Shown here: positions 9,175-38,748 of the stretch, one piece after another
How positions within the stretch are numbered: position 1 is the first letter of the stretch
Layout of the letters: every line of letters begins with the position of its first letter
Source of the DNA: a virus
Reading direction: 5' to 3' (one strand)
DNA length: 64,000 bases
Virus record (IMG/VR): IMGVR_UViG_3300034683_000142
Coordinates: 34,885 to 98,884 of that record
Notes under the pieces: model-generated
Database searches by the model: none
What the model saw: the letters and a program-made list of their open reading frames with translations, nothing else
What the model was told of the DNA's origin: nothing
Program-made: the position numbers and the translations under genes

Positions 9175-11072
9175 TGAAGTATAAAAAATTACAACAAGGG
9201 GGATTACTTGTGTATCAACCCACAATTGTCCCATCATCTAGTATGCCAGCAGCTCAAAGTGGAGCTGTTGGCTCTACTGGTAATAAGAGTAGTATATTAG
9301 ATGATGATATAGTAAAACAATTATCTGGGGTAGAAGGATTAACTAATGATACTAATGCCTTAATCTCCCAATTAGCACAACTAGAATCATCTTCAAATCC
9401 TTTCTTAAGTAGGCAAAATAGAACAAAAGCATTAGCTATTATAGGAAGAATTAATGAGCTTAAACAAAATAAGTTTATGTGAGAAAAATCTTATAATACG
9501 GCTAAAGAATCTAAGGGCTTAAATGAAGTTGCTGTTGGAGATCTTGGAGAAATGTATGTAAAGGATAGTGAAGGAAATATAAAAGCAATTACTCCAGAAG
9601 AATATAAGAAGAATACAGATAGATATAGAGCTATGTCAGTAGCAGAATTGCTTGAAGAAAGAAATTCTAACCCAAATCTTACTGGAAAAAATGAAATATT
9701 TAATATAGCTAATAATTCTATTGGTATGGAAGAAATATCTAAATATGCCAATAGCATAGTAGCTGCTTTAGGTAAAGAAACAATAAAAGCTGCAAAAATA
9801 TATGATAGAGACAGTTTAGCATCTGCTTTAGATCAGTCTGGAAAAGATATTCAATTAACAGGAAGAAAAGCTACAAATGAAGAATTACAGGGATTAGCTA
9901 TACTAGAGTCTATGAAAGATAGTCCCTCTAATTATAATAAAGTTATTACCGAATCTAGTACAGAAAGAAATCATGTTTTAAAAGCAGCAAAATATATATG
10001 ATCTACATTAAATAATAGTGCTCAAAAGAAATTATCTGTTCAAGCAGCTTTAAACAATACTGATCCAACTAACTTATTAGTTGATTTAATAGTATTTGGA
10101 AGTGATGTTTCTAAGGATACTGATATTGTTCCTATAAAAGGAGGTGCTGGTTCAGGGTCTGGTTCTGGTGAAAGTTTAACTCATGCTACTCGTTTATCAC
10201 CATTTGAAATGTTTATAAGAGGTACTTTAAGTTCTGGAGCTACTATGAAATTTAACGATCCAGAATTTGCAGCTAAATATGAAGGACTGCTATTTGGACA
10301 AATGCCTTTAGTAACACCTAAAGGTGATCCTATTGGCCCAACAATTTTAGAAAATGTTCTTAAAAATGGAGAATATGAAAAGTATGTAGATAGAAATAAT
10401 ATATACTTTGGTAATAATAAAGTAAACATATGAAATACTAAAGAAATAGCTTTAGACGGTGGTTCCGAAGTAGCTCATGTTTTGTTACCAGTAGATAATA
10501 GTGGTAAACCAACCCAAGAATCACTAGAATCGTTTAGAAATGTTATGGATATCTACAACAAAAATAAAGATACTATGTCACCAGTAGAGATACAAAAACT
10601 ATTCAATCAACATAGATTTGATGTAACTGTGGATACAAATAAAAATGTAAAAGCTAGAATGATTGGAGGAAATGTGAAACCATTCTTGATAACATGAGGA
10701 TATACGACTGCCGCAGTTGATGACTTAGTAACCAACAATTTAAACTATAATAATGGAGGTCTTAGAAAAATTGAAAGTTCTGAAAAAGATGGTATTTGGC
10801 CTATATTAAAACAAGCCTGGACTGTAAAAGAAGGTAATAAAGTTAAAGTTAAAGATCCAAAAAGTTTTATGAAACAAGACCATGTATATAAAGGAATAAT
10901 ATTTATGCCACTTGTACAGAGTGCCGATGCAATAGCCTCAAGTTATGCTGGGCATGGGCCACTTAAACCAGCTTATACAGAAGAAGATGTTATGTATCAT
11001 GTTCAAAATAAATCAGGAACAAATTTTGTTCCATCAACAATAGAAGATATGGAGGATTCGTATGAATGATAA
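9174..11072 (+). CDS. Virion cargo protein, ~632 aa (TGA read-through)
   Basis: ORFs 9174, 9552, 10209, 10482 and 10869 share a frame and are separated by TGA. The gene ends TGA-TAA at 11067-11072. Confidence 0.75.
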
Positions 11073-14000
11073 TTTGCCTAAAATAGAGACTAAGTCTGGA
11101 ATAGTAAATGATATGTTTTTAGCTACTATTAAAAATCCTAATGCTACTACATATGATTTTTTAAATAATAATGTAAATCCTCTAAATACAAGGTTATTAG
11201 ATAGAGACGCATATAGGGATAAATCTGTAATAAAAGCACAGTTTACTAGACCAGATGGTAAATTTGATGAAGCAGCTTTTAATGCAGCTTATAATAAAGC
11301 TTTATTTAATTATAATCAGATATCTAATGAAGAAGCTATAAAGAATCTGGACGATGTTAAATATAATCCATTTAGTGTAACTAGGCCAAAAGAAGCTAAA
11401 GTTTGGGATGTAAAAATTGAATTTTCTGAAGACATAAATCCATTTAAACAGTTATATAGTAGAGATTGGGTAAACTCAGTTACAGACAATCCTTTAAGTC
11501 CAACAGAAATAGCTCAATCTGGAAAGATATTAGATACCAGAACTGGTGAATGGCTAGATTCTGCTAATAAGAAAAATATATTTGATAAATTTTTTGGTGA
11601 AACTTTAGTATATGCCCAATGGGATGAAGATGGTGTACATACTGATCCTATAACTGGAAATACTGTAAATCATAAAAAAGGTGATTGAAAATTTGATCCA
11701 GATGGAAACTTATATCTAGAAACTCTTGGAGATAGAGAAGTGTATGGAAAACAAGTTGTTAGTCCTACTGATATTTTAACAACTGATGGAAGTGTATTTA
11801 ATAAATTTGATTTTCTGGATTCAGATGGAAGAACTAAATCTGTAGGAAAAGTAGCTGCTAAAGCTGTTGCAGAAGTAGCTCCTTTACTTATACCAGGACT
11901 AAATACTTGGTATGCTGGGACAAGAGCAGCTGTTAGTCTAGCTTCTGTACTTCCTACCTTTTATAAATCTTTAGAAGGATTATTAATCGGTGATGAAGAA
12001 AGCATATTTACAGATCCAGTTACCAAAGCTGAAGGATGGTTGGCTAAATTTAATCAAAGTAGTAAATCTGAAGAAGCTTCTAGAAGTTTCTGAAATCTAG
12101 AGCAAATGTCTGATATGGTAACTAGTGTATTCTCTCAGATTTATGAACAGAGAGCTATGGCTAGTCTATCTAGATTATTAATGAAGCCTGACAAACTTTT
12201 AGATAAAAGAACTGCTGAATTACAAAATCTTATGTCTAAAAAAGCTTATGAAGCATCTACAAAATATGGTATTGATGCTAAAGAAGCTATAAGAAATGCA
12301 GTACAAGATTTACCTGAATTACAGGAATTATATAGAAAGCAATCCCAGTTTGCAAAGGCTTTAAGTCTTGGATATATGGCATTAACCTCAACAGGTAATG
12401 TGTATGGGCAAGCTATAGATTCTGGATATGATAGAAGAACTGCTGGATTTGCATCTTTATTAACAGCTGCTGGTCAATATGGTATTATGATGAATAATAG
12501 AATGGGTGATTGGTTCTTGGATAAGACTACAGGCTATTCTATTGGAGTAAATAATGCTTTAATGAATAAAGCTATAAAACCATATCTTGAACAGACAGAT
12601 GATATACTTAAAAATTCAGGATTAAGTATAGCAGCAAAGAGAACTAAACTTGCAGAGCTATCTACTAAATTCAAAAGGAATTTAGACAATATGTTTACTG
12701 GCCCTTCAGTACTAGGAGAAGCAATGTTTAGAAATGCTATGATTGAAGGTGCAGAAGAGGTTACTGAGCAAATGGTTCAGGATGCTACTCAAGGTATAAT
12801 AGATGTTATGGGTTATCTAGGATTGACTAAAGAAAGAGGAAATTTAAGGATAGCTGAAAAATATACTAGTGGAGAATTCTTACAAGAATACCTAGCTAAC
12901 TTCATTGGAGGTGTTTTAGGTGGAGGATTGTTTGAATTGGAGAGATTTAAAATTAATCCTTGATTATCCAATGATAATAAATCTGTAAGTAATGAAACTA
13001 AAAAAGAATTAATTGAACTTATAGCTGGAGGTCATAAGGAAGAACTTAAAGATATGATTAGAAAAGAAAGTAAAAAACTTACTAATGATTTCTTATCATA
13101 CGTTACAGAGGATGGTGAATTTAAACCAAAAGAGAGTGTATCTCAAGCTGATGCCGTAGCTAACCTAGTTATAGGTATGGTTGATCAGTTAGATACTGTT
13201 TTAAATTCTGAAGGATTAAATCTTACCGATGAACAAATAATTGATAAAGCTATACGTACTAAAGTTATATTAGACAGATTTGAAGAGCTTAAATCAGATG
13301 ATAAACCATTTGGTATAGAAGCTTTAGTTCTTGACGATCTAAAGAATACAATGGTTAAAATAGCTCCACTAAAAGCAGAAATAATGAATCTTGAGAAAGA
13401 TCCAGAAAATAATAAGGAGCAAATAAAACTTAAGAGAGAAGAACTTAAAGGATATTCTAGTAGAGTTAATGACATATTGGAAGGTAAGCTAGGCATGGAG
13501 TATTTTAACCAATTGCTTATGTTACTTGATAAACCTATAATATCTAAATATGGATCTTTCGATAGAGACACATATACAAAAGCAGTTTATAAGAAAAGTT
13601 ATGATGAATTACCAGAAACTGGCATAGTAACTAAAGAATCAGTTAATAAAGAATGACAAGATTATATAGACTCAACTGATATTAAGAGTAAGTTAAAAAC
13701 TGCTACAAATGCTTTCTTAAATAATGAAAAACTAATAAATCCAATAATAGCTCAATATCATGATACTGGATATTCTGTAGAAAGGAGTAAAGTATATAAA
13801 GATGTAATTGATTTAGCTAAAACAGCTTATCTATTTCATAACTCTAATCCCCAAGAAAAGCAAAAATGATTTACTCATTTTATAGATGTGATGAATAATC
13901 TAGAATCAAGAGGAACTACTAAAGTAGGAGCATGGGATGTCTATAAAACTAGTATATTTGATGAATTTCTTAATAACTCAATGATAAAAAGAGTTGATTA

Positions 14001-17000
14001 TGGTATAGATAATGAGGGTAATATAATTAAAAATACTTCTGATATAGATGATAAATACTTATCAGAAGTAGATGAAAATGGCGTATCTAATAGAGAAAAT
14101 GCTGAAAATATAATAAATGAAATTGTTGCTAGACAACCGTCTCAAGCTCTAGATACTAGATTTTTAATAGATACTTATAATAGCATAATTGATAATAGGA
14201 ATGCTGATATTATAAATACTATTAATAGATTAGAAAGCAAAGAAAATAAAACTGAAGAAGATTATCAAGTTATAGATTCATTAAAAAAATCTATATTTAG
14301 TGTAGGTTTAACTTATGCTGAAAATCCTGCTGCTTACGAAGAGGAAAAAGAAAAAGCTAAAAATAAAATCATAACAGAAGTAGAATCCAGATTTCCAGAA
14401 TTATTTACAGAAAATGAACCTAATGAATCTAAATTATCTAAAGTAGATTCTATATTAGAAAATTATACTGTATTAAAACAAAACAGTGCTTTATATGAAA
14501 AAACTGTAGATGATATAATAAAAGATGAAGTTGGAGAAGTAAAAGAAAATTTTGATGATTATAGTAGAAGTGATTTAATAAATATCTTTAACAGATTAAA
14601 AAATATTGGTATTCTAGACCAAATAAGTCTCAAATATAGTGATATAAATGAAGAACTAGAAAAAATAGAATCTGGTGAGTATGATAAAGATACTTTAAAA
14701 AATATTTTAAGTATTACTAATGAACATATTTTGGAATCTAAAGCTATTCTAGGTAATCCTAAATATGAAGATTTGCTTAATAAGTTATCAAATATAAATG
14801 AAGAATTATCAAAAAATCTTAATTTATATACTCCAGATATTATGAAATTACAGAATGTAGCTTTTAGTACTATAATAAGAGCACTAGATTCTGGAATTTT
14901 AGATAGAGAGTTGTTTAATGAAGCTAAGAATATAGTGAATAATGATTTACTTGTAGCTAAAAATAAACTCTTTAAAAATGGTGATAATTTAAGTAATGAG
15001 GATTTCATAAATATTATTAACAGCATTGATACTATAGTAGATAGAATAAGTTCTTTATCTCCAGATGTATTCTTTAGTGATGAATCTTTAGGTGATTATG
15101 AACCTTATGAGGGTTTGTATCTTATGACTTTAGCTGATTTGTTACAGACATATGATGCATTTTATTCTGGAGATTTCTCATCTATTCCTGATTTCTTCAA
15201 AGAAGAAGGTAGATATATGGATGAGGAAGATTTTAACTACTATTCTGAAAAGTTTAAAAATGAATTCGGAGAAGATTGGCCATTATTAAGAAAAGTATTA
15301 GAGAATTTTGATGACCCAGATGCGTATGCTTCTTCTGTTATTTTAAACATTAGTTCAGGTTTAAATAAGAATTCTGTAGGTAATGCTATAAATAACTATG
15401 AAATACTGTCCAAATACGAAAAGAATACTAATAATTTTATTTCTAATCCTTTATATGATTTTTTAAGAAAATATTTTATATCTTTGGATTCTGGTAAAAA
15501 ACCATTAACTATTTTAGATATACTTCAAAGAGAAGAAACTTCTTATAATGCAGCTTCTGGTGCTTCTAATTTTATATCTGATGATATAAGAGAACAAGAT
15601 GTTAGACAAGCTATACAGATGCTTGAGTTATTAAAAGTAAATATAATGGCTGCTAGCCAATCAGATGTTAATGGAGAGTTGCTAGGATTTATAACTTTAA
15701 GAAAAAAATATGCCGAAAAATCTGGAATAAAAGATGATGTTCTTGATTTAAGAACTATATCATCTGATGAAGGACAGTCTATGATTAATGATATAGATCG
15801 TCTTATAATAAGATTAGATTTTATATCTGGATTAGCCACTTTTAATAGGAAGAGAACTGCTGTAGAACAGGAAGAAATAGGTAGAAAAATGGATAATGTT
15901 CTACTAAGTACTTGGGATACTATTATAAAAAGTGAGATAGGTAATGAATTCATACCTTTAGAAGCTATACAAAATGCTTTAAGTTCAAATAAAAAATCAA
16001 GTGCTAAGTTATTAGATATAGAAGATGCTGTATATGAGCATAATAAAAATAGAAAAATAGATGCTTTTAGAGTTTTAATAAGAAATTTTGAAGGAGCTGT
16101 AGTTGGAGAAAGGTCTAATATAACCAAAGATATGACTTCAGCAGATGTAGTTCAAATGGATTTAATAAACTATTTAGCTACTACTTTAGCAGTTAAATCT
16201 TCTAGCTATTGAACAAGAAGAAGGAAGAATCTTGAAAGAGAGGGTAAAGCACCGTTTTATATGCAGGAGTTAGTTGCAAAAGAAACTTATGCTTCTATAG
16301 TTAATCCAGATCTATTTGCAGAAACCTTTAATGTAAAGAAAAATGCTTTAAAAGATGATACTAGTTCAATTACTATAGTATTAGGGTCTGCTGGTTCTGG
16401 AAAAACTACAGCTATTATGGGTTCTGTTATAAATGATATAAAAGATTCTAATCCAAAATCAACAATATGGTTAAGTGCTCCCAGTCAACTACAAACTGAT
16501 AATCTTACTAAAGCAATAATTGATGTAACAGGCAACGAAGGATTGTATTATACTAGCTTTAATAAGAAACAATTATTTTCACAGTTTGGAAGTGAGGTAG
16601 AAAAGTTATATGATAGAATTCAAGATAGTATAAGAAATCTTGACAGTGTTAAGACTTATACTTGGGAACAACATCAAAAAGGTGAAGATAGGTCTGAACT
16701 ATTTAGCATAGTAAATGATGCTTTATTTTTTAATATCCCAGAAGATATATATGATAAAATAGACTTAAGTAAAGCTCCAAATTTATTAATAATAGATGAG
16801 GTAACTCACTTTTCTAATCCAGAATTACAACTGTTACATGCTATATCTCAAGTTTCTAAAAAGAGTAATAGCAATTTTATGAAAGTTGTTGGTCTTGGAG
16901 ATCAAAATCAGCTAGGTTATAAAGTTAAACATTTAAATCAATATATAAATTTCAATATAGAAGGAATAAATGCAATATTTACTCCTGTACTATTAACATC

Positions 17001-20000
17001 TGTAAGAGCTAGTAATGATCAACAAAGAGTAAATAATGATTTACTTCTTAATTTGGCATCTAAAGCAGACAATATAACTTCTGATATTGCAGATGTAGCA
17101 ACTGCTAATGCTATGGTTAGGTCTATGCTTAGTGATGTAAATGTAGTAACTGGACTTAAATACTATTTAGATAATAATTCTTTTAAAGGTACTTATATAG
17201 CTCATTCTTATAGAGATTTAAATCCTCTTTCTGTTATTGCAAGAGAGTATAAGAATGGCAAAAAGAATAATAAAACTGTTACAATTGGAGTTATAACTTC
17301 TACTGGGGATATTGATGAAGAGTTATTAAGTAGTTTGGATAAAGTCGGGCTTTCTAAGGATGACATTACAATATTTAGTGCTAATAATGTTCAAGGTAGT
17401 GAAGTTGACTACATGATTTTTGGTACAGAAGATATATTGAAATATGATAAGCTTAAAGAAAATCTAAGAGCATTATATACTTTTGCATCTAGAAGTAGGT
17501 CTGCTAGTATTATAATAGATCCAGATAATAAATTAAATGATGTATTAAGTATTACGAATGCAGATAAATCTTTATATTATATAGATTATGATCCATTAAC
17601 CCCTACTTTAATAGAAGATCTTAAAAAGAAAAGATTGCAGGATTTAGATGAGTTGTTAAAAAATATTGATAGTCAGTTAGAAGATTTTAAATGGATATCA
17701 GGAATTACTACAACAACCCCTAGTACAGATATTGATTTTGGTGCAGTTGCTAATCCAAATTTATATTTAGATACTCCAGAGGATAACAAAAGTCTTAAAA
17801 TAATGAGTGGGAAAATTAAAGCTAATGACTTTAAAATAATGCTTCATTCATTTTATAATAGTCCTGGAGCTAAATTATCTATAGAAGATGGGAAACCCTC
17901 AAAAATAACTGTAGATAAAGAAATGCCTAATTTTGACTTAAATGGATTAAAGAATGTAACTTCTAAAGATAAAGCAAAAAATATAGTAAATCAATGAGTA
18001 TCTCTTAAGTATAATATATTAAATAAAAGACCAATAAAATCTACCGACTATAAGGATTACTTAAGTCATATATTTGCGGGAAACTTTAATAACCCTACTA
18101 ATATAAATGTAGAATATATGACTGTAGTCCAAAGATATAATGAAGAATATCATGACCCTTATGCTAAATATGAAGGAGATTCTAGTTTATATTTAAAGAA
18201 CACTGATTTATTCATAAATTTAGTAGCAAAAATATCTATAGGTGATAAGAGCCATTTTATAACTTTGGCAAATTTTCCTACTAAAGATACTTTACTTTCA
18301 GAAGGTTTAAAACAAGTCGATGGGGATGTTTCTACATTAGAATCTAAAATAAATGATTTTTATGATAAGCTAGAACATGACATACCATTAGATTTTAAAG
18401 GATTTAAAAAACTTAATAATATAGATATTAGCAGTTTTCAACCAATTACTAGTACTAGATTAGTAACCAAAGATTTAGATAATAAATCTATCTACACATT
18501 AGATACTTTATCTGATAAAATACCAGGATTAAAATATAGTACTATAAAAATATTTCCTGGAAATATAGATGATTTCAAAAATTATGTAAATAAGTACACC
18601 TTTGGAGAAAAAAGATCTGATGAAGAATTAGGAAAACTATTTAATATATTAAAAAACAAGCCACATATAATAATATCCTTTGATTCTGATTTAAATGGTT
18701 CTAATGAAAATAGTCAGGCTAAGTTAATGCCGATAGGATCCAAATCAAGAAAGTTAAATGAGCTTATTGATGAAATACTTAATCTAAAGAAAGATGCTAA
18801 TATAGAATTAACTCAATTTTATAAAAATACTAGTAATGGTGTTTATACTCCAAGTAAGGAATTAAATGCTAAATTTGAGACAGTTTTAAATCCTTCTCAA
18901 ATACTAGATATGTTAATAAAGTGAGTGCAAACTGATATTGATATAAATGGGGATAATATTAAATTAATAGACTTATTATCTAGAGAGATTAATTTTGAGA
19001 ATACTAATGATATTTATCAAGGTAATAAATCTATATTAGATCTTATAAATAATTTCAAAGAATCTACTGTTACTGGAGAAAAACTAAAAGATGTTATAAA
19101 AATAGTAAAAGATACCATAAATAATAATCCAAAAGCTGAAGCTAAAGAAATAAAGGATTCTGTTATCAAACAGATTAGAAAAGGTTATACTGGGTGACAT
19201 TGGAACTTCTATAATTTATTTGCTTATGCTGATATAATAGATCAATCTTTTAAAAAGAAGATTTTTGAAATGGTAAAATCTGGCTATCTTATAGATAGAG
19301 ATATAGATTTTGAGTCTGAAGGATTAAAAGAACTTAAGGGTAATATTGAAAAACTATTTTATCCTATAAAAAATTGAGGATTTTACTATAATGTTCCTAT
19401 AAGTTTAGATAAAAATTCTAATATTGTAGCTAATGAATATATAAGTGGAGAACATGGGTTTAGTCCTAAATATTTTTCTGATAAATTCTTTATAACATCT
19501 ACTCCAGAAGGGCCAAGACTTTTATTAGATTTTAATTCTGTAATAAATAGTAATCCTACTATTGTGGATGAAAATAAAGCTGAACCAGTGCCAGATATAG
19601 TAAAAGAAGTTACAAGAAACACAGAAAAAGAACCTATTTTGGATTTAATTAAAGAACAAACTCTAAATACACCGAGAAATCCTATTTCAAGTACTAACAG
19701 TGATTCTACAGTATATAATAATACTATAGATATATCTAGTATAGAAATCAAAGATGTTAATGGAAATATTATAAAACCATTTACTGACTTTAATGTAGAT
19801 ATATTACCAGGTCTCTTAGATGGTGCTAATATGTTAAATAGAAAGGATGAAGCTATTAGTAAAATTAATGATGCTATAAATACTTTAGTTACTACTATAT
19901 CAACAGGTTCAAATATACTTGGGGTTCCTAAAACTGGGTATGAAGCTATTAGAGACTTTTTAATATCATTAGCAGAGTTTGGAGATGGTTATGTAGAAGA

Positions 20001-20148
20001 CGGTGATTTACCAACTTCAATAGATATTATTAAAGCTTTTTATGGAGAAATTTCTAAATTACCTAAAGAAGTTAAAGAAAAAATAAAGAATTCTAATTTT
20101 AGAAATTCTTTAAATAAATTAATAAAAAATATTAATCAATGTAAATAA
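11062..20148 (+). CDS. Giant virion protein (~3028 aa) with an SF1 helicase-like P-loop domain; RNAP-associated cargo
   Basis: Nine ORF-track pieces share one frame and the gaps contain no TAA/TAG (10 TGA). SF1 motifs GSAGSGKTT, LLIIDEVTH, GLGDQNQ, VQGSEVD and LYTFASRSR lie within ORF 16261..17997. Confidence 0.8.
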
Positions 20149-23100
20149 TGCATACTTGTAGTAATAAAATTCAGAAACGCATTATCGAGGCTATGGATAA
20201 CTACCTCCTTGATGCTGATAATCCTACATTTTTAGATTTAGAAGAGTATATAGCAGAAGAACTTGGAAGAGATACTTTTAGTTTTAAGGAAGTATCCGAT
20301 AATGCTCCAATAATTACAAAATTAAAGGACATATTTGGTGAAGATATAGACTTGTCATCTGACGAGTCTATATCTCACTATTCTAATATATTAAAGGATG
20401 TAAAATCGTACTCTATAGATGATTTGTTTCATGGTATTCCAGCTGCTAAAGTAGAGTTTGATAGCTATGTTAAAAGAGTTGTAATAGGAGAAGGTGTATT
20501 AGGTAAAAACAATGATGATACCTATGCAGTAAATGATGAACAGTTAAATAATAATTTTACTAGAATAAAAAGTGATTTATTTAACAAAATTCAAGATTTT
20601 CTAATCAGTAAAAATTTATATCATGGGGATATTCTGCCTTTATATAATGAAGAAGGAGTAGCAAATTATGATAGTTATGTAAATATAATGACTATTATTA
20701 ATGATTATTTTTTCAATAATCCAGAAATACCTATTATAAAATCATATACTAATAAGAAAATACCTAATCTATCAGTAAGTGATGCTAATAAGCCTATATT
20801 AGAAGCATACTATAACATGATTTTACTTTCTAATTTTGATACTGTTATAAGTACAAAATTTAAGAATTTCTTTAAAGTAAATTTAAATAAATTTAATCTA
20901 TTAGATTCTGGGTTTGGAGAAAATTTGAAATACTATTTAAAATTTGATCCAATAACTACTCCATATTGAAGAAACGATAATCACCAATCTGATAGCTCTG
21001 AAGAAAGAACTGATGAATTTACAAGAAATATTGTAAGTATCATACCTTTGTATAATAAGTATGGTGTTAAAACTGACGAGTATCTTGAGGTAAATGATCT
21101 TTATTTAATAGCTGCTAAAGTATCTGAATTTGAATTACGAGAAGGCAATAGGCTAAAGAATCAAAATACCAGCTTTGACTATTTTAATAGTAATCCTATA
21201 GAAAAACTCAAATGGTACATAGAAAATATTAACAAAGCTATAAGTAGGGAATCAGATTCAATACAAGAATTAAATAGATATTTTGATTCTATATATGATA
21301 AGATATTATCTATTGATAAATTTATAAATGAATCTGAATATAATATAGCTAAAAAAGAGGTTAATTCTGGAAATTCTATATTAGGTTATATAGCACAAGT
21401 AATTAATAACAATTATGGAACTTCATATGCATCTTATGATATTAAAGGAAAATATAATGTACAAGAAATGTATAACCAAGATTTTAACTCAACTAGGGTT
21501 CAAAGTACTGTATTTTCTACGTTAAAGATGCACTATGCAGATAAGGATTTTTATAATATATCGGATGACTTTGAAGAACTTTTTCCTAATAGAATAGATA
21601 CAGTTGATAACATATTACATGCTGTAGAATCTGGTGAAATAGACTACAATAAATTAAATAAATATATAACTTCTAAAACAGGTATAGCAATGTCTAAACA
21701 ATCTTTAATTAATACTATTAAAGATGTTTCAGTACATAATAAAAATGGCAATCCTGTTAACGGTATAGAATTTAAAAGTATGCTTAAAGAATTAATGTTA
21801 AATCTTAAAGCTGATTTTAGTTCTGATACATTTAGAGAAGCTGTAGCATTATCTAACGATAAATCTGTTAGGTTAGATTCAACTGTTGGTAAGTATTTAT
21901 CAAATACAGTAAAAAATCCATTATTTATAGCTCTAAAAAATTCTTTCATAGATAAGTTTACTGTAAAAGTAGTAATGAATGCTAATACAGCAAATGGTGA
22001 TACAATACCTTCTTTTAAAATAGGAAATCTTACATACAAGGACACACAGTTATTTGACTTAAGAAGACAATATGAAAGAGAAAATCCAAATGGATTTTTT
22101 AAAAGTTTGTTATTGAAAGACAGTCCAGCTATTCTTGGAACTTTGACTAAACTAGAAGTAGTTAGAAAAGGAAGAGCCAAAGACTATTCTAAACTTACTC
22201 CAGAAGAACAATTTATATCCGATTTTAATTATGACTTTTTAAAGAGTTTAAATTATTTTGGAAGATTTTCTGTAATATTAGGAAACTATTCTGATAAACC
22301 AACAATACTAGCCAAAATTATAAATGGAGATTTTAAGTTAACAGAAAATGGCAAGCCAATTGTCAGGGAGTCTATTGATACTATATTAGAAACTGTAAGA
22401 GTACAGTCTTTTTCTTATTATTCTGATTTATTAGATAGTATATTTTTAGATTATAAAAATATATTTGATATATTAGGTATTAAAAATAATATAGATTTAA
22501 ATTGGAAAAATAATAATAAATTAGAAGACAATGTAAAAAACATAAATGATATTCTTAAAGTTAATAGTATATCAAGTATAAATGATAGGCTCGCTGATAT
22601 ATCCCCAGATAAGAGACCAAATTTGTTAATGCAAGAACTTCACTATTCTAAATATTCTAATGGAACTTTTTTAAATAATCTTATCTTAGATAATTACCTA
22701 ATATTTTCAGATAGTTCTAAAGATGGGTTGTTTTATAATATGTTTGTTCCTAGAACTGAAAGTTCTTTCATAACTAAATTTTCTAAGTTTTCTAATCCAG
22801 ATTCTTTACATATAGACAAGAATGAAATTGATAGTTATTTAAATTTATTAAGTATAAATAGAGAAGACTTTAAGTCAAAGAACGGTAGTAAATCTACTTA
22901 TGAATATGATTCTTTACTTATAAATAATAAATTAAATCCATTTGTAAAGAAATGGCTTTGATTAAATTCTTTATTTAGAAATGAGTATTTATATATAGGA
23001 GTAAAAGGAGAGTATATGCATCCTCATAAGAGCAATATACTTTTTAGATTTGGAAGTGATGATAAAAACTATTGGGATAATTACTTTTTAGAAATGTCTA

Positions 23101-26100: not shown

Positions 26101-29100
26101 TAGGACATGGATTCTTGAATAATGGTAGAACTGATTTATGAACTAATCTAAGTTCATATTCTACAGTAGATCAGTTAAATGCATTAATGCAACTTCCTAT
26201 GCCTAGTGGAAAGATTATAAATATTATTGAAGGTAATGGAGACCCAAATTTAGAAATTCTATATAATCAAATAGCAAATAGTTTAGCTAATGTATCATAT
26301 GAATATGAATTACCAACTGAAACTATTCTATTATTTAATAAATTTATAAGAGCTTTACCAACTACTAATCTAGATGTATTACCTATAAATATAAGTCAAG
26401 AAAATCCTAATTTATCTTTTAATGAGTTTGAGAGATTGTTAAATAAGCATACTACATATACTGATTATAGTACAAGTCCATATAGTGTTAAGAATTCTAT
26501 TGTTCAAAAAATAAATAAAGTTATTTCTTCTGCTAGTAATCAAATTAATGCTAATACACCTGTTGATGTACAACCATTACATGATGCTATCAGAAATGTT
26601 CAAAATAAAAGAAATGGACAAACTCAACCTAAAAACGTAAGTAGTTCTAATAATATAAATAGTTCTAATAATAATGAAATAGGTAATCCTAATATAGTTT
26701 TTCGCACGTCTTCATTCAGTGATTATAAAGACAGAACTTATGAAAATGCTTCAGCAGATGCAACTATAGCATTAGCTACAGATTTTAATAGTTTTGGTGA
26801 ATTAGCTACTAAAGTAGCTGTTTTAGGACAAAATAAAAAATATATACCTATTGATGCTAACAACTTAAATGTAACGCCAGAAAGAGTTGATAAGATAGTT
26901 AATGAACTAAATAACCTATCTAATCCTACTCCTATTTTAAATTATTCTAAATTAGAAGAAAAGTTACAACTATCTACAAAAGAAAAACCAATTATTGTTT
27001 ATGTTGATGGTAGTGATATTAAAGGAACTGGTGCTATTGGATTTGGAGTAAATACCACTTATGATAATAAAGAGTATTCTATATCTGGCTCATTTGATAC
27101 AAATAACTTATCAAGTTTAGAAAAAGATTTAGGTATTAAATTAAAAAATAAGCCTTCCAATGCTGTAATGGAGTTTTATGGATCTTTAGTAGCATTGAGA
27201 AATACTCCAGAAAATGAATATATTGTTATTAGACAAGATTTAGAAGGTGTACAGCTTTGAATTTTATCAGGATTAATGGAGAGATTTTCTAATCAAAATC
27301 TAGATACAAAAAGCAAGTATGATTCTTGGTATAAATCTTTAACTGAAGAACAAAAGCAAGATTACTATAATAAAGTACAAAATATAATAGGTCTAGATAA
27401 AAATTTAATTTCTAAATTTGATTGGGACGGTAGAAAAGGATTTTATGCTGAAGATATGACTGTTAGAGCAATTCAGCAAAAGATAATAGATATTATATTA
27501 AACAGAAAAGGAAAAGTAAAATATCAATGAGTTAGGGGACATTCTGGTGAAGCTGGTAATGAAAAAGTAGATGCTATTGCAAAAGAAAGACGTAACTATA
27601 ATACATATAAAGATTTATTTAATAAATCCGCAGGTAAAGAAAAAAATACTGAAAATAATTTTAATTCTGATTTATCTAGTTTAGAGAAGAATGCTAAAAA
27701 AGAGATATCTCTTAATATAGCAGGCAATGGTATTTATACTATGAAAGGTAAATATACTCAAGACCAAGTTGATGAATTTACCTATAAATTATTAAAAGCT
27801 ATTATTGAGTCTCCTAATCTTAAATTAAAAATTAATTCTATTAGATCTGGTGGTCAAACTGGATTTGATGAAGCTGGTGCTAAAGCTGGTATAAAATTAG
27901 GAATACCTGTTACTGTCTTAGCTCCCAAAGGTTGGAAATTTAGAGATATAAATGGAAAAGATATTTCTGATGAAAAGAAGTTTAAAGAAAGGTTTAATAA
28001 TGTATTAAACAAAAATAAACAGATAAGTAATCCTATTCTAAGTAAAGAACAAAAAGAAACAGTAAAGACTCCAACTATACAACATATTGCTGATCATGAT
28101 AGTGACTTAGGAAAAGATAAAAAAGGGTATGAGCAATTTAGAATATATGAAAGGATTGATAATCAGGATGGATATAGTTTAGCTTATGGTAAACCTATTA
28201 AAATTAAAGGATTTGAAGAATTTGATTTTTATTTAGCAGAAAATCAAGAAGGAAGACCATGAACTACATATGAAAAAAGAACAGGTAGAATTACAAGTCG
28301 TGGAAATACTCAAAAAGAAGCAATTGAGAGTCTTCAAACTGGATTAAACTCTGTTGGATTGGATAATATGAGGAATATTATATCAAGTCAAAGGTCAGTT
28401 TATGAAGAAAATCAGGTAGAAGAATTTAATACAGAAGAAGTAGAAAATATATCAGATGAAGATAATTTAAATTCTCATGATATGTTATCTTATTATCAAC
28501 AACAGTATGATGCTTCCGTAGGTAAAGATAACACTGGTATAGCTGCTAATGGAGTAAAAGGATTGTTTGCTTTAACTGCTTATTATAATAATTTCTTTTT
28601 AAATACTTGGGGAAATAAAGATCTTACTGATACAGAACTTAGACGTAGTAGTAAACTATTTAAGAAGGATATTAAATTCAAGGATGATTTTGGAAATGAT
28701 GTAAGGATATTTATAGGAAGCTTGCCTGATGTACTTATAAATAGAAAACAAGAAGAATCTTTAAAAAGAGTTTTAGGAGATAATTATAGTAGATTATTTC
28801 CAAATAGTGCTGTATATATGAGTGCATTTGTATCAGCTGCAACAGACAATGCAAAAGAGCTTATTATGGCAAAGGTTAATGCTTCACCAAAATTAGCAGG
28901 AATGCACGCTTATATGATAGCATTAGGATTTACTCCAGATCAAATTACTGAGTTTATGACTTCTAAAACAGCTTCAAAAATTGTTTTGAGATCTACAGAT
29001 AATATATATGATGATGGTATTAGTAATTCTGTTACTAGGGTTATAAAGGAACTAAAAGCTGATCCTACCGTAAATAAAAGTCAGTTATTAGCGTTTGAAC

Positions 29101-30626
29101 AATTATACCTAGATTCTCAAGAATTTGCTAATCTTACAAGTATATTAGGAGTAAATCAAAAATTAAAAGCCAGAACTTGGGAAATGTATAATTTTTTAAG
29201 TAGATTTGATAATATATTAAGTTCTGCCGAAAAACTAGCTATTAAAAGTTTTAAAGACTTGGATAAAATTAAATTTAGAAATGCTATATTGAAGTATAAT
29301 AAATTATTAACTCCAGAAGATTCTAATTATATAGATGAAATATATGATGCTATAAATTCATTAACTTTAGAAAATGGTAAAACTGTAAAGATATTACACA
29401 ATTTTAATAGTAATTATTATTTCAGTAGTCCTAGATATAGACACTACGTTAAAGAATATTATAATCTTATTAAGAGAACTTTTAATATTTTTGAAGTAGT
29501 TGATGAAGTTCCTCATTTTAAAAAATTAATAGAAAGTTTAAGTATGTCAGATAATGTATTAAAAAATACTACTGAAAAATATAACTATACTTTAAATACT
29601 TTAAAAAATGTTTTAAATGATGAGTCTCATGAATTAAATGAAAATGATATTCCATTATATGTTAACATAAATAATTTAACTAAGGGATCTAATTATTTTG
29701 ATACTAAAGCTATATTATTATGGTTAAAAACAGACAAGATGAGTAAATATGCTTTTGATGTCGGGAAAATACTTAGACAAGCTGGAATGGATAGCATTAC
29801 ATTATATAAAGATAGCAGTTCAAGATATAACTTAGAAACTATAACAGTAACTCCTGGAGATGACTATATTGTAGATTTGACTACAGATTATGGAATTGCT
29901 AACTTTAAGAAATTGATGGAGGAGGCAGTTCTGCCATTACTACAGCAGTTAGATAATTCTAATGTTATAAAAAATCTTAGAGTTGAAACTATTACAAATC
30001 AGTATGGATTAAAGACTAATGCCATAGTATCAGCTTATGAACTTAAAAGATTAAATTCTTCAATAGCTATAGAGCAATTTAATCAACTTATTGATGCTTT
30101 TAATAATATAGATATCAACACATCTACAGCTAATAAGTTTCAGAATGCTTATGGTGAACCTTTACAGTGAAGGGATCTGTTCTATATTTATAATCTAGTT
30201 GTAAATAATGAAAGGTATGGGAATAAAAGACTTACACCTCTTTTTAGAGACTATACAAAAAGTTTTGATTCTCTATCTTTAGACTATATGAAGTTCTTTT
30301 CAAAAATAGATAAAGGTGATATAGACGTTTTGTATGATGATTTATATAATAGTCCAGAGTATATAAATGCTGATGAAGATACTAGAAAGTCTTTAAAAGA
30401 AAAATATGATAAAACTATTAAAGAAGATTTATTGTTTTATTCATTTAATGAAAGAGGCGTATTATCAGAATTAGAAGACAGCCCTGAAGTAAAAGCACAG
30501 ATAGCTAATCCAGATTTTGTTTTAACTTGAAATATAACTGGCAAATATGATACATCATATTATAAGATGAACTCTTTACTTAGAAAGATAAATTTAGGTG
30601 GTTTTATAGTAGAATTTAATTGTTAA
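20148..30626 (+). CDS. Virion DNA-dependent RNA polymerase catalytic subunit (~3492 aa, 12 TGA), with inserted SLOG and RNase H domains
   Basis: Single frame from ATG 20148 to TAA 30624-30626. SRIPSQSMQS...LQGSDFDVDK catalytic motif at 26067-26087 matches crAss/phi14:2-type DFDID RNAPs. Downstream GKDNTGIAAN and SAATDNAKEL motifs. Confidence 0.9.
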
Positions 30627-30627
30627 T

Positions 30628-33600
30628 ATGGCAAAGTGTGTATATATATTAAGAACTCCAGGAGGAGAAAAGATAATAATTCCTGCTGATTTTGGAAGTT
30701 TAGAATTAGATGATGATAAAGCCATAGAACTTATAAACAATTATAAGAGTGCTAAACCATCTGAAAGAAATGATGCTTTAAATGAACTTGTATCTTATAT
30801 TAAAGAGAATACTAAAGTAACTAAGATAAATAAATATGTGATAGAAGATGCTTTAAATAAAGATAAAATTTCTGATATTATAAAAGAAATAAATCAACAA
30901 TTAGAGTATTCTACAACATATAAAGATTTTTCTAAAGCTTTAAAAAATTATTTATATAAGAATCCAGAAAAGTATAATGAAATTAATGAGAGAATTAACA
31001 GAAGGCTATTGCCTTCTGATTTTAAAAATTTAGATACTAATAAAGTATTAGGAGTAACTTCACTTAATAATGAGATATCTAAATTAGATTTATTAATAAA
31101 TGAAAATAGAACTCAAGGATTTGATTATACTTTTCTGGATAATATTAAAAAATTCTTAGAAGCACTGCATACATCTAGAGTGTTAAATAAAGATAAGAAT
31201 GTATTAATATCTTTTTCAACAGAATATGGACTAAAATCAATAAATGTAGATGAGTACTCATTTTTTAAAGAAGATAATCCAAGTTCTCTATTTTTAAGTC
31301 TTTTTAAAAGAGTTGGGAATAGTATTGATGTTAATTTATTAAACGATATTCTTACAAAATATAAAATAGATACTGTAAAAACTTCTAAAGAATTTTTTGA
31401 TAATATAGCAGAAGAAGCAGTTAATCCTTCTAAGTTTGAAAAATTATTAGAAAGTAAAGAGAATAATAATGTAATTTCTGAAATAATAAAACTAATAACT
31501 AATAGGTTAGATCCTACAGGTTATTTGTACAGTAGTACTAAAAGTGTATTTCAAAATTTAAATCCGAATAGTTATGGGTATAACATAGTAAGAGACTACA
31601 TGAATCAGCAACAGTTTTTAGAAATGGAAAGAATTTTTAGTAGTGAATATACTACTAATAAAATAATAACTTATGCTGAATCTCTAGACTTATTTGATTA
31701 TAATAAAGCTAAGGATGACTTATTTTCTGAAGTTATTCAATTACCTAATGTAGATTATAAATATGTAACACAAAATGTTGCTGTAGGAAAAGACTTGTTG
31801 TTAGTTCAAAATACTGATAAGTCTGGAAAAAAGTATTTTAATTCTTATATTATTCAGAATATATTTCCAAAGGATAATGGTGTATTCATAGTTAGCCTTT
31901 ATAAAGATCAGGATGGTAATTATAAAAGCTATAAACAAACATATCTACCTGGTGATGATCTTTTTATAAGAAAAAGAGAGAGTGCTAAGATACCATATGA
32001 TCCAGATTTGGAGATTACTACTAGTAATAATTTTGTAGAATTAAAAAGAAATTTTAAGTATTTGTCTAAAAATGATTTGCAATATTTTATAAAAGATATA
32101 GCAACTGTAGGAGATAAAACTGATATTGGTACTGTAGTAGGTGTATATCCTTCATATTTATATATAAAGTCAGAAGGTGGTTTTACTAAGCAAGCATATT
32201 CTGATATAAAAAGTTTTAATTCTACTGTGTTAGAAGAATTATATAAATCATATTCTGACATACTAAAAGATTTTAATTATAATGCTTATACAGAAATACG
32301 TGATGTAAATCTTATATCAAAAGATGATATAATAATAGATCCAACATCTGCAATTAAAAATAAAGCAATTGTAGTATATTCTAATCCTGATTATGTATTT
32401 ATAATATCAGATAATGGTAATAAAAAATATATAAAACCAATCCCAAGAATAGAACTAAAAGATAGTAAAGCATGGATGAATTCTATTGATAATCTAACTC
32501 CTGATGAAAGGAAAGAAATAATAGATAATTTAAATGCTATGGATGCGTCATCTATGACATTATCTTTATTTTTTGATAAGAGTAAGGCCACTAAAGGAGA
32601 CTATTTCTATGGTAAATTGAATAATGACCAAGTATATGGTAAAATAGTAGATAATAATAAAGTTATAATTTTTAAAGATGGCTCAGAAGTACATAATATT
32701 TCAGATATATCTGATATACAGTTTTATACTTCAAGAGATATATCCTCTTCACATACTTTACATATTTTAAGAGTCAATAGTTGAAAAGTAACTCCTAAAC
32801 CAATAAGTATTGCTGAACAAGATCCTAGTTTTGTAGAAGTGAAGTATATTATTCCTAATGATATAGATGAGAATAGTTTAACATTTTTACCTACTGGATA
32901 TGCAGATATAGGAAAATATATAGACAAATATACTGATATTCCAAAAGGATATAAAGATATTACTAATTATGTAAAAACTACATTTTTTAAAATTAATGAC
33001 AAGAACACTAAACTTTATGTAATTGATTTAAATGGTTCTAGAAAGTATGAGGTAGATCTTACTGGTCTTAGGAAGATTGTAGATTTTAGTAAAATTCCAG
33101 TTGAAGAAAAAGAAAGAATAAATCCTTTAAGAAAAGGAGTATATTTTAATATAGTAGAACGTGGGCGTTTATCTGATACTATGTATAGAGTTATGGAAGA
33201 TGTTGGAGATGAGATTATAGCTCATACTAACAAAATCAATGATAAAGGTGATATAATAACTATAGAAAAAGTATTTAGTAAGAGACAATTATATCAAACC
33301 CCTATAAAGGTAGATGGGAGAGACACAATTCCAGAAGGTTCTATATATAATTTATATCTGCAAAGTGGAAATAGTAAAACTAATGTATTATTAAAAGCAA
33401 CTGAAAATATACTATCTCATGATGAAATTCTTAATGTTGCTGGTATGCAAGATTTATTAGATAAAATGAAAGCCTATTTTGGAAACTATGGTATAGATGT
33501 AGATATAAGTAATGATAGTAAAGAGTTTAAAAATAATCAATTTGCTAAAATAAAAACTGAAGTAGTAGATGATAAACTAAAAACTTCTATATTATTAAAT

Positions 33601-34050
33601 GGAAATAAAGGTACTAAATCAGATCTAGTCCATGAAAATTTACATATATTCTTAACATTACTTAGATATAGTGATTATAGTACCTATGGAAAAGTTATTG
33701 ATTCTGTATTAGGAAAAAATGAAAATGAAGAAGATATTTCAGAAAGAGAAGAACAGTTTGTTAAAGCTATAGTTAATGCTTTACAAGGTGATTATATTAC
33801 TAATTTCTTAGATAAAGCAGATATAGTAGCTCAACAATTATATAATGTAATTAAAAAAATAAATCCTGATTTTAGTCTAAATATAGAAAGAGCAATAAAT
33901 AATCCTGAAGAATTGTTTAAGTCCTCTTTAAAAGATATATTTAATTATAAAAGTGATATATCTTCTCCTTACTATAATGTTAGATTAATAGATTCAGAAG
34001 CTTCGTTTAGAGAATGGGCTAAAAATAAAATAATACTAAAATGTGATTAA
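30628..34050 (+). CDS. Large virion protein (~1140 aa) with a C-terminal zincin-like domain (one TGA)
   Basis: 30628..32784 and 32839..34050 join through TGA. LVHENLH...EREEQFV zincin motif. Confidence 0.75.
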
Positions 34051-34051
34051 T

Positions 34052-37000
34052 ATGGGATGCTTTTATTATAAAAAAGAAAATGGTGAATTAATAAGATACG
34101 ATTTAGAAAGTTCTGTATATGAAGATTTCTTAAAAGAAACTAGTATCCTAGCTTCAAATTCTATATTTAGTTCTGAAGATGTGGTAGATAGTATTAAAAG
34201 AGAAATACTTAAAGCTAATTCTCCAAAAGCTTATTATGAAGCTACAGATATAGAAACTGTATATGAATTTGTTACTAAACCTCATGCTGAAATATTTGGA
34301 AATATAGCAGCACTAAAAGGACAGAGTAGGTTAGCTCCAGAATTTATACAGGAAAATAGAATTCTAGAATTTGTTAAGGCACATTTAGAAGAGTATACTA
34401 ACAACACTGGTGCAGTCTATACTCCAGAATATTTAGAGATGTTAAAAAAAGATCCTGTATTAAAACAATACGATGATAAAGACTTAATACCTGCACTTGC
34501 TGAAGTAGAAAGTAGGATTAGAATAGAAGAAATGACTAAAAATTTTAGTATTAAGTTTCATGAATGAGTAGATATGATTTTATCAAATAATGGAAAATTT
34601 GAAGAAGATTTTAGAAAGTTTTATTCAGAGAATCCAGAGATATTTGGTAATGATGTAGATATATCTATATGAGAAGAAAGAATAAAGTCTATTATTGGTA
34701 ATATAATACGTTCTTTAGAAGGAGAACCCTTACGCTCTATTCATTTAGTATCCTTACCTAATAAAGCAAATAATGTTCAATTAAAAGCTAAACTAGGTAT
34801 AGTAACTGTTAATACTTCTGGAGTGGCTAGTATATATGATGTGAAAATATCTAAACATCCTTTTAGTGATTGGGATGAATCTAAAACTCTTACTTATGAT
34901 TGGGAGCTAGCTCTAGAAAGACAATTATTAGGACAACATATAGATGTAGAAAATACTAGGCTTTATATAATACCTATAGAATTTAGTAAGTTAGGTGATG
35001 TAACTACTTTAAAATTTGGAACTCCAATAAACAGAACTACTCAAGGAGTCTCTGGTTTAGAAAAGTATAGACAAATATCTTCTATTGCTGAGATATTACT
35101 TCCTAGAAAAATTAAACCTGAGTATGATCCAAATAAAATAGCAGCACTTAAAGATTCTTTGAATAAATTATTGTTTCCAGATTACAGAGTTAAAACAGAG
35201 TGGGAAGATAATGATTTAGAGTTATTAATGAAAAACTCTAGAGAAAGATTTGAAAAAACTGGAGTATTTAAAAAATATAATGGTTTTAAAGATATAGACG
35301 GATTACCAGAAGGGATGATAATAGAAACCACTGAACACCAAACTGCTGAAGAAGCAGAAACAAAGTTTAGAGAAAAGATGGCTTTATATGTAAATCATGT
35401 AAAATCATTAGAAGGTAGAGGTGTTAGTGTAGTAAAAAATGCTGTAATATCATCTATTGCTACAGGTTCTAGTATAAAATTAGGAAAAAATCCAAGTAAA
35501 AAAGATATAGCTTTAGACCACGTATTAACAGAATATTTAAATGATGATTGGCAAGTTTTAGAAGGTATTAACGAAGCTGATGCCTTAGGAATAATTGTCA
35601 TGAGAAATACTAAAACTGGAATAATAAATTTATTTGATATTACAGTTCATAACTTATGAGCAGAATCTGGAATTAAAGGAATGACTTATGACCAGGTAGA
35701 AATGTTAAAAGCTATGTATTTCTTAAATGAATATAAAGATGTTCTTTTAGCCAAAGGAGCTTATAAGTTAGGAGAAATAATAGTTTTTAATAGTAGGAAT
35801 GGAAAAAGTAGATATAGGTCTTCTGCAACTGTTCTTACTTGGTTTAGAAGAAGAATGAATGAAGTAGGTATGGGAGATAAAATAAAAATTAATGACAATG
35901 ATTTAGTAGGAACAGAAGATCTTGCATTAATGACTCTAAATACTTATGTAAAAAACTATGCAGGTAAAGGACAAAAAGAAGTTGAAAATATATTTTCTAT
36001 ACTGCAAAATAATAGGTTTGACGAAATATCAAGAGAAAGATTAATTGAAGCAAGGGATCAATTTCTAATAGCTTTTCCTGAATATAGAGATGTAGAACCA
36101 ACTAAAGAACTAGATTTTCAAAATCCAACAGAAGTATTATATGCTTTATTACAAACAGCTATATTATCTAAATCTGGTATAAAACCTGAAGTTGATTTTC
36201 AAGGTTTAACAGAATATAGTATCGAGGCTGGAGATTTTCAGTCTCTGTGATTAGGTATTCTTAACAAGAATCAAAGAAAATATGATAAAAAAGGTAATAG
36301 AATACTTGGTATAATAGGTGGGTTATCCTGGATTAATCCAGAATTTGTTCAATCCAAAGACTTAAGGAATATAAATGAGATGGTTGCTAATGGCAACTCT
36401 ATAAATGGACAGAAACTTAATAAATTTAGTGAACACCAATGACCTTTAACTGATGAACTTTATAGAAAACTAGGATATGGTAAGTTTAAACAAATGACTT
36501 GAGGGGAAACTCAATCTATACATGCTGACTTTTTTGTAAAGGATAAAGAAACTGGAAAAATTGATAAATCTTTTAGAGCTAAAAATCCATATATAATTGA
36601 TGAAGAAAATGCTTTAACTGAAGACCAGAGAAAATATTTAAAACAAACATTGCTTTATATAAATGGTTTCATGGCTGGACTACCAGAAAATGAAATATAT
36701 TCTATAGATCCGACTAATTTAGAGAATATTACTAATAATAAATTACTAAAGGCTAGAATAGAATCTGGAGATTATTTTAAAATGCCACTTATGAGGAGAG
36801 AAGAAATCTCTAAATATAAAAGACTTGTAACTGGGTTTGGTGAGTGGTATAATATGGTAAAAGATAATCTAAGAGATACCATAGATCCTAGAGAATTTTC
36901 CTCACTTGATGTAGAAAATATAGAACACCAAAAACTTGGTTTTTTTCAAATGTATGATGTGTTTGGAAGTCAAGATGATGAGACAAGAGCAAGAATGATG

Positions 37001-38692
37001 GATAGGGAACAAATAGACTATTTTGAACTAAATCTTGATACTATAGCTCATAAGGTAGCTTTTTATAAAACTAGAAAAAGAATATTCGATATAATACTCC
37101 CAACTATTGAATCATATGTATGGTGAATGAAGTTAATGGGAGGAAAGATGGATGAAAAGGTTAGGAAGCAACTAAACTATATAGTTAACCAGGTAAACCT
37201 AGCAGTATTTAGTAAACCATTAGTGGATGATGAAGAGAAAAATATAGCTCAAGGATTAGCTTTTCAAAAGAAATTTTCTACTATAGCAATGCTAGCTTTT
37301 AGACCAACTATGTTAGTAAAAGAAATAACTGTTGGAACTATAAGAAATCTACTTACTGCTGGTACAGGAATACATGCTGACTTTGGAGAAAAAGAAATGA
37401 TAAAGGCTTATGAAAAGTTATTAACTGTAGGGTTAAAACAAGCTGTAGAACATAATTTAATAGAGGCATTAAATAGTGAGTATAGAATAGCTAATATGGA
37501 TATAGCAACCATGCCAGAAAAAGTTCAACATGATAAATTAGGATTGGCAAGGGGATTAGGTAGATGAATGTTTGCTACATCAACTGGTGGAGATTACTTT
37601 AATAGGTTAGCCATATTATTAGCTAGAATGATTAAAGATGGTTCTTATGAAGCGCATTCTATGAAAGGAAATACTTTAGTATATGATCCAAGAAAAGATA
37701 AAAGATTTTCCTATTACTTAGCAGAAAGGGAAAAGTATAAGGATGCTGATGGCAATTATACTAAAAAATCTGGAGACTCTTTATACAATGAGCAAAGAAA
37801 TCTATATCTTTTAATGATAGAACAATTTAATTCTGAATATGCTATTGTAGGAGAAGGTCATCTTACAGAAAAAGATTTAATTCCTAAAGCTTATACTCTT
37901 AAAGAAAGAAACTCAATAAAAGCTATGGCTGATAGAGTATATGGAGCATATGATAAAGATGCACAAGCTCAAATTAATAATAAGTTAGCAGGAATTGCAT
38001 TCTTTCAATTTATGCAGTATTGGCCATCAAAAATGCAATTTTGATTTGGTAAACCAATATCAGCTGATGCATCTCCTGTAGGTAAGTTTGAACATGCAGT
38101 CAAAAAAGATGCTGATGGCAATCTAATACTCGATGATAAAGGTAAACCAATACATTTATATCTTAAAGATGTTGTAGATGAAAATGGTGATCCAGTATTA
38201 GATGAGTATGGTGTTCCAAAAAGAGAAATTGTAGAATATGAAACAGATGAAAAACTTATGGCTTGAAATGGCACTCCACAAGAAGGTATATTTTATTCTG
38301 TCTTTTATACAATAAATGATTTAGTTAGATTAAACTGGGATGATCTTAAAAAGAATAAATGAAGAGTAAATAGAACTCTTTATGCCATAGGAGATTCTGT
38401 TTTGATCTTTATGATATTAGGTATTATGAGAGCTATATACGACTCAATGAAAGATTCTACTGAAAGAGGTACTTTTAGTGGTGAAACTGTAGCCTTTATG
38501 GATGCTGTTAATACAAAAGTACTTAATGAGTATAATTTATGAAATAATACTTTTGGAGCATTAAGTTCCGAACCAGCATGATTAAGTTGGAGTTTAGGAG
38601 CCATGCAAAATGTAGGAGATGTTATTCAAGGTGACAAGACTTTGGGTAAAGCAGCTGCACAATCTATAGGTATGTTTGAAATGTTAAGATAA
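34052..38692 (+). CDS. Large virion cargo/RNAP-associated protein (~1546 aa, ~13 TGA)
   Basis: One frame from ATG 34052 (MGCFYY) to TAA 38690-38692, interrupted only by TGA where read. Confidence 0.75.
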
Positions 38693-38700
38693 AAAAAAAT

Positions 38701-38736
38701 AAGCCGAATACAGTAATTTCTGTACTCGGCTTTTTT
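38701..38736. terminator. Bidirectional intrinsic terminator 1 at the convergence of the two gene blocks
   Basis: A-run, then AAGCCGA-ATACAG-TAATTT-CTGTAC-TCGGCTT, then T-run. Confidence 0.8.
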
Positions 38737-38748
38737 ATTAAAAAAAAT

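Follow-up and report, generated by a model that had tools for sequence, protein, structure and literature searches.

The polymerase modules of the crAss-like phages crAss001 and phi14:2 are among the closest described counterparts of the locus analyzed here, a run of four giant genes, designated A to D, in a 64,000-nt stretch of viral DNA (the window; positions 34,885 to 98,884 of IMG/VR record IMGVR_UViG_3300034683_000142, whose source genome is a single 98.9-kb contig). Both modules, as the only ones of the order, are known to be present in virions (PMC10172136; 10.1101/2020.03.07.982082), are thought to be ejected partly unfolded, and are fused into one polyprotein in some phages. In crAss001, gp47, gp49 and gp50 were assigned as virion cargo by mass spectrometry, and disulfides were described within the tail assembly as well as in the dimer that gp57 forms at the portal vertex (PMC10172136). 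The same paper mentions neither the cysteines of gp47, gp49 and gp50 nor a link between cargo proteins. Similarly, the preprint on the phi14:2 RNA polymerase (RNAP) never mentions cysteine or a link between module proteins (10.1101/2020.03.07.982082). The phi14:2 proteins are referred to here by their GenBank numbers, gp078-gp077-gp076, which are gp067-gp066-gp065 in the preprint.

A disulfide joining two such proteins has been resolved in a phage of another family. In the pre-ejectosome of cyanopodophage A4 (Anabaena phage A-4L), cryo-electron microscopy revealed a bond between gp27 Cys1715 and gp26 Cys5 (PMC12002296). In the A4 genome (KF356198) these are the only cysteines of the 1,717-residue gp27 and the 1,114-residue gp26, which are encoded in that order. 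The likeness to the locus studied here lies in adjacent genes arranged in chain order, with the upstream Cys three residues from the C-terminus and the downstream Cys at position 5, and all three junctions among genes A to D carry this signature (an upstream Cys near the C-terminus and a downstream Cys at about position 3-5). The A4 pair differs in that a single link connects two proteins, each in five copies and neither an RNAP, and in that the phage genome is 42 kb long, whereas in the window three candidate links would join four giant proteins (relatives have as many as four links), as part of an order-wide rule that covaries with gene fusion and fission.

Other podophages provide a second comparison. 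Cysteine has been purged from the giant ejected proteins of the Schitoviridae, virion RNAP included (N4 gp50, DEV gp71-73; PMC11445570), and the same paper credits to earlier work the proposal that transit through the oxidizing periplasm lies behind the purge. In T7 (locus L196, 27307-34551), the internal core proteins gp15 and gp16 are free of Cys and gp14 carries a single one, its second residue; no two Cys face each other across a junction, and thus terminal pairing is not a general property of podophage ejection proteins. In the Schitoviridae and T7 the purge comes without terminal pairs, whereas the crAss chain spares exactly the facing termini. Because Cys is purged elsewhere in ejection proteins, the spared residues are marked as functional.

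The module in the window is homologous to those of crAss001 and phi14:2 (B with gp50/gp077 through the catalytic motif, D with gp49/gp076 through hhalign) and obeys the same Cys rule. It differs from them in having a four-member chain, with C and D split, as well as TGA read as Trp, no internal Cys and an RNase H insertion in the RNAP.

Cysteines and identities of the four chain proteins

All four genes lie on the + strand and were read with translation table 4 (TGA as Trp). Under table 11 the region 11062-38692 is split into many open reading frames (ORFs), whereas reading TGA as Trp yields four contiguous genes. The in-frame TGA columns align with Trp, Tyr or Phe in standard-code relatives, and not with Cys or Gly, and we therefore consider this reading sound. 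The late genes on the + strand contain many in-frame TGA codons (1-13 in each gene counted), the early genes on the minus strand few (0-2). ARAGORN found no tRNA gene of any kind in the window or in positions 1-36000 of the genome, which together make up the whole contig, and hence none that accounts for the recoding.

Gene A (11062-20148; 3,028 residues) is the first member of the chain, and its sole Cys is the penultimate residue, Cys3027 (codon 20140-20142), in the C-terminal sequence NQCK. Gene B (20148-30626; 3,492 residues), which encodes a virion-type two-barrel RNAP, contains exactly two, Cys4 (20157-20159) in the N-terminal MHTC and Cys3492 (30621-30623), the last residue of the C-terminal EFNC. 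Gene C (30628-34050; 1,140 residues) likewise contains exactly two, Cys4 (30637-30639; MAKC) and Cys1139 (34042-34044; LKCD), and gene D (34052-38692; 1,546 residues counted from ATG), the last member, has only Cys3 (34058-34060; MGC). A count over the table-4 translations thus gives six Cys in 9,206 residues, each no more than four residues from one of the three facing termini, with none internal and none at the outer ends (the N-terminus of A and the C-terminus of D). The original prediction had reported just this arrangement, three junction pairs at the same codon starts, over about 9,200 residues; the count reproduced it exactly and turned up no internal Cys that might have been overlooked.

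Other genes in related loci have a Cys frequency of 1.04%, at which about 96 Cys would be expected in A to D, and the minus-strand replication genes of the window contain 1-2.5%. Under uniform placement, the probability that six Cys would all fall within the six four-residue facing zones is (24/9206)^6 = 3e-16. On this figure, and on the order-wide survey described below, chance was rejected as the source of the pattern.

By its sequence, B is a two-barrel RNAP of the Crassvirales type. Its catalytic motif (DxDxD in a GSDFDIDK-type context) lies near residue 1973, the G, D, D, D and K of the motif are invariant in the RNAP alignment, and blastp matched B to crAss001 gp50 and phi14:2 gp077 over the motif region. 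B also carries an inserted RNase H domain at residues 2280-2480 (Pfam PF00075, 34.8 bits, above the cut-off), followed by a piece resembling phrog_10774 and cpYpsA at residues 2521-2610, the two together spanning 26985-27977. The blastp offsets suggest an insertion of about 600 residues in this region relative to the RNAPs of two relatives, L005 and L002.

The remaining members are less readily named. A has a weak P-loop region resembling superfamily 1 helicases at residues ~1766-2152, where Pfam AAA_19 scored 26.2 bits against a cut-off of 25.1, while AAA_30 (25.9 against 27) and UvrD_C_2 (22.6 against 27.4) fell under their curated cut-offs. A had no PHROG match; blastp aligned it with the A protein of L001 and with A1 and A2 of L002. 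C contains HENLH, an HExxH motif, at residue 1002, which also occurs in the C proteins of L005 and L002; it is zincin-like by this motif and had no Pfam or PHROG family match. Thus, of the labels originally proposed, RNAP for B stood, helicase for A comes down to a marginal P-loop match, and zincin for C to the HExxH motif. D had no PHROG or Pfam match; its homology is with the crAss001 gp49 / phi14:2 gp076 family, of which it corresponds to the C-terminal two thirds (hhalign probability 97.7%, E 2e-12). C gave a probability of 12% against the gp49 family, a weak match at the HExxH motif only. Taken together, C and D look like the fission products of a gp49-type protein, a resemblance that is solid for D and weak on the C side.

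When the PDB was searched with profiles of the D and gp49 families, only noise and no phage chain came back. Neither protein C nor the C-terminus of A retrieved a close relative of the window from IMG/VR, and tblastn of protein C against the phage collection found no match; relatives were reached only through B and through alignments. The location of HExxH differs by lineage, with the motif at residue 2157 of gp47 in crAss001 (L032), at residue 245 of gp076 in phi14:2 (L034) and at residue 1002 of C in the window. The aligned segment of crAss001 gp49 is PEEFAH, which lacks HExxH, and the annotation of BK010471 has the zincin fused to the first protein. Domains seem to move among chain members while the terminal-Cys rule persists.

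The terminal-cysteine rule across Crassvirales

The pattern recurs in named phages. In MT835470, which uses the standard code and is about 27% identical, the chain reads SQNCKLNI (end) / MAC to RINC / MSC to KENC / MAC, and the last protein has no C-terminal Cys. In MT835492, where TAG encodes Gln, A is split in two and the extra junction has a pair of its own (FEACKVIA at the end, MQSNC at the start). In phi14:2, the single Cys of gp078, Cys1797, is its last residue (TIC), gp077, the crystallized RNAP, has exactly Cys3 and Cys2179, and gp076 has only Cys3. In crAss001, gp47 has only Cys2339 of 2,341 residues and gp49 only Cys5, while gp50, of 2,412 residues, has Cys5 and Cys2404 near its termini and a third, Cys1334, in its interior. 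The prototype crAssphage (L096, 97.5% DNA-identical to Carjivirus communis BK010471) has a two-protein chain, SFSCM (end) / MSC. Thus phi14:2, crAss001 and prototype crAssphage all follow the rule.

For a broader survey, 80 IMG/VR loci found with the RNAP alignment were combined with named phages and dereplicated at 70% identity to 46 lineages, and a terminal Cys was scored when it lay within 12 residues of a terminus. Cys was present on both sides at 57 of 60 junctions, and at the other three the partner Cys lay somewhat deeper in the protein or by a second Met. Inspection resolved the apparent exceptions and showed that crAss001-type RNAPs have their Cys at -9 or -10, that L101 starts at a second Met (MSC), that the N-terminal Cys of L088 and L089 are at positions 9 and 20, and that the A protein of L112 has its Cys at -32. 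As in the window, where the original prediction had noted it, the outer ends of the chain were bare (0 of 16 chain-start N-termini and 0 of 36 chain-end C-termini). Among control ORFs of the same loci, 9 of 87 had Cys in the first 12 residues and 13 of 87 in the last 12. Internal Cys made up 0.097% of the chain proteins and 1.04% of the control ORFs. We conclude that Cys at facing termini is a rule across Crassvirales. In the literature we found no paper describing such a terminal-Cys chain rule for crassviruses.

The number of terminal Cys follows the number of junctions when genes fuse or split. Fusions of A with RNAP, 3,600-4,392 residues long (L082, L092, L094, L102), have at their ends only the C-terminal Cys, which is the one Cys of the whole protein in L092 (4,111 residues), L094 (4,392) and L102 (3,890). 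Fusions of RNAP with the downstream protein (L085 and the prototype crAssphage) keep, among their termini, only the N-terminal Cys. L095 (2009-18937) has a single ORF of 5,642 residues with no Cys and with the RNAP motif at about residue 3161; judged from its length, it would be the upstream partner, RNAP and downstream partner fused. Conversely, a Cys pair is present at fissions, namely between A1 and A2 of L002, between the 1,167- and 1,308-residue proteins of L102, and between C and D in the clade of the window. In that clade, 21 lineages were found with the D alignment; the C-terminus of D carried Cys in none of them, and of the 15 D-family clusters with a scorable upstream neighbor, 14 had the full Cys pair at the C/D junction. 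Mapping of split termini onto fused proteins by blastp provided one usable pair, L065 on L082, which was collinear.

In the RNAP tree at least seven architecture changes are needed, and well-supported branches force at least two for each fusion type. The window groups with the MT835470-like (L005) and MT835492 (L002) phages in a deep clade with full support. In L001 (MT835470), a 234-residue ORF with five Cys (23634-24338) interrupts the RNAP gene, while the RNAP of L005, from the same species, is intact (3,254 residues). The interruption, with similar cases in L061 and L063, looks like a mobile intron or homing-endonuclease insertion, and the pseudo-termini that it creates carry no Cys.

The Cys codons themselves could be part of a nucleic-acid or translational feature of the junctions, such as a TGT within a coupling, re-initiation or read-through signal. 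The window junctions are tight, since neighboring genes overlap or are separated by a single nucleotide, and all but one of the six Cys codons there are TGT. However, across the survey the junction gaps range from -19 to +500 nt, the Cys lies anywhere from position 2 to 9 at the N-terminus and from 1 to 10 residues from the C-terminus, and TGC is also used (19 codons, against 116 TGT). No in-frame Cys codon occurs at 9174 or 11062-11072, which are likewise tight junctions of the window. A signal at the junction is contradicted outright by lineages in which the partner gene lies elsewhere: in all 12 visible lineages that encode the gp47-type partner on the opposite strand, kilobases away, this protein retains a Cys at its C-terminus and often has no other. 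These lineages include crAss001, where gp47 is on the other strand from gp50 and gp49. An intramolecular disulfide between the N- and C-termini of one protein was rejected as well, the outer chain ends never carrying Cys. The survey, the fusions and fissions, the trans-encoded partners and the codons thus exclude both the nucleotide signal, to which we assign next to no weight, and the intramolecular bond.

The terminal Cys might instead bond elsewhere, in homodimers, with other virion proteins at the portal or capsid interior, or with periplasmic host proteins during ejection. In favor of such partners, the crAss001 virion has many disulfides between tail proteins (PMC10172136). This explanation would nevertheless account neither for the bare outer ends of the chain, nor for a count of terminal Cys that remains double the count of junctions whether genes fuse or split, nor for the Cys-free all-in-one polyprotein of L095, and we regard it as unlikely. 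The survey, the fusions and fissions, the trans-encoded partners and the codons point instead to head-to-tail pairing of consecutive, different proteins in chain order, which is strongly supported at the level of sequence. The original prediction of a linear A-B-C-D chain would have failed had the terminal Cys proved not to be conserved or not to covary in relatives; in the 46 lineages they were conserved across Crassvirales and covaried with gene fusion and fission, and every prediction that could be checked by computation held.

Chemistry of the junctions

Pairing logic alone does not name the chemistry. Facing termini could dock so that their Cys ligate a shared metal ion or stabilize a non-covalent clasp, and the MHTC start of B in the window places a His beside its Cys. 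Each terminus, however, has one conserved Cys, with no second conserved Cys, His, Asp or Glu adjoining it. In the Rad50 zinc hook and other known metal clasps between chains, each chain supplies a CxxC, which counts against a metal site. Furthermore, the sole solved case with this signature, that of A4, is a disulfide (PMC12002296). A metal site or clasp is accordingly improbable in our estimation, slightly more so than bonding to other partners.

The Cys might also serve as handles for ligation or cleavage, through intein-like trans-splicing, joining of the native chemical ligation type, or autoproteolysis. Many of the C-termini are Asn-Cys (EFNC, RINC, KENC), like the C-terminal junction of an intein. 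Against this, a Pfam scan found no Hint or intein domain in A to D, the window Cys are 1-4 residues from the ends, too close to accommodate intein halves, the N-terminal Cys occupies position 3-5 and not position 1, and fused relatives exist without a junction Cys. In addition, a reducing gel of crAss001 showed bands of about 150 and 270 kDa (PMC6235969), the sizes expected for separate gp49 and gp47/gp50. These bands therefore fit a reducible link and argue against a peptide link, and we consider ligation or splicing very unlikely.

We thus take a disulfide to be the most likely junction chemistry, and a probable one, by analogy with A4. With similar confidence we propose that head-to-tail disulfides form a pseudo-polyprotein of the ejected polymerase module. 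In this proposal, A to D would constitute the polymerase module that a deep-branching crAss-like phage packages in its virion and injects into the host, with the proteins purged of Cys, as in the ejected proteins of other podophages, save for one at each facing terminus. In the assembled, oxidized virion, the C-terminal Cys of each protein would most likely pair with the N-terminal Cys of the next as an inter-protein disulfide. The four proteins would then make up one A-B-C-D thread, linear and about 1 MDa in mass, in imitation of the giant single-chain polypeptide encoded by some relatives. Such a thread would likely serve for 1:1:1:1 co-packaging and for continuous N-to-C threading of partly unfolded proteins through the tail, and the chain members would separate once the bonds are reduced in the cytoplasm. 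We infer the bond chemistry, by analogy with A4, as well as the time of bond formation, the order of ejection and the reductive release, of which the last two are reasonable suppositions.

Several points weigh against this proposal. Virions assemble in the reducing cytoplasm, and the habitat of gut phages is anaerobic, conditions that cast doubt on when, or whether, the bonds would form. The one such bond observed directly is that of A4, outside the crassviruses, and the crAss001 map did not resolve the density of the cargo (PMC10172136). The A4 proteins gp24-gp29 gave no meaningful blastp match to crAss proteins (none with E <0.1), and because they lack sequence homology the precedent is one of analogy. 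A single Cys per terminus confers no obvious chemical specificity among three junctions, and correct pairing must therefore rely on non-covalent docking. Some lineages carry many internal Cys (17 in the RNAP of L077), which would invite scrambling. Finally, the fused relatives show that later separation is either not obligatory or achieved in another way.

Surrounding genes and implications

Two genes directly upstream of A on the + strand, 4927-9174 (1,415 residues) and 9174-11072 (632 residues), have no family match and stand outside the Cys-linked chain. Neither contains Cys in their combined 2,047 residues, so that the purge seen in N4, DEV and T7 extends to them as it does to the interior of A to D, and their positional analogues in L001 and L002 also contain none. 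By position they are candidates for further cargo or ejection proteins, like crAss001 gp45 and gp46. Just 3' of the D stop codon, a G+C-rich hairpin followed by a T-run, read by eye at approximately 38703-38737 (+ strand), looks like a terminator closing the + strand late block. A 1,211-residue virion-type protein encoded at 32146-35781 of the contig (C1), whose gene ends at window position 897, has a Cys four residues from its C-terminus (TLCVKI), with no obvious N-terminal Cys partner among the downstream genes.

The structure of crAss001 raised the question of how a crassvirus packs some 0.7-1 MDa of folded protein and passes it through a narrow tail. A conserved end-to-end tether would give a concrete mechanism, from which a single thread, a fixed order and redox release are predicted. 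Such a tether would also explain how the chain genes have been free to fuse and split in evolution. Somewhat more tentatively than for the disulfide itself, we favor the broader view that throughout the order, the most abundant human gut virus included, the RNAP module is a redox-cleavable disulfide thread of up to five giant proteins, which would substitute for a polyprotein, set packaging stoichiometry and ejection order, and part in the reducing cytoplasm, and that the same solution arose independently in A4-type cyanopodophages. A terminal Cys pair may then serve as a sequence marker for chains of ejected proteins in uncultured phages, and the results suggest that the gp27-gp26 bond of A4 exemplifies a more general principle.

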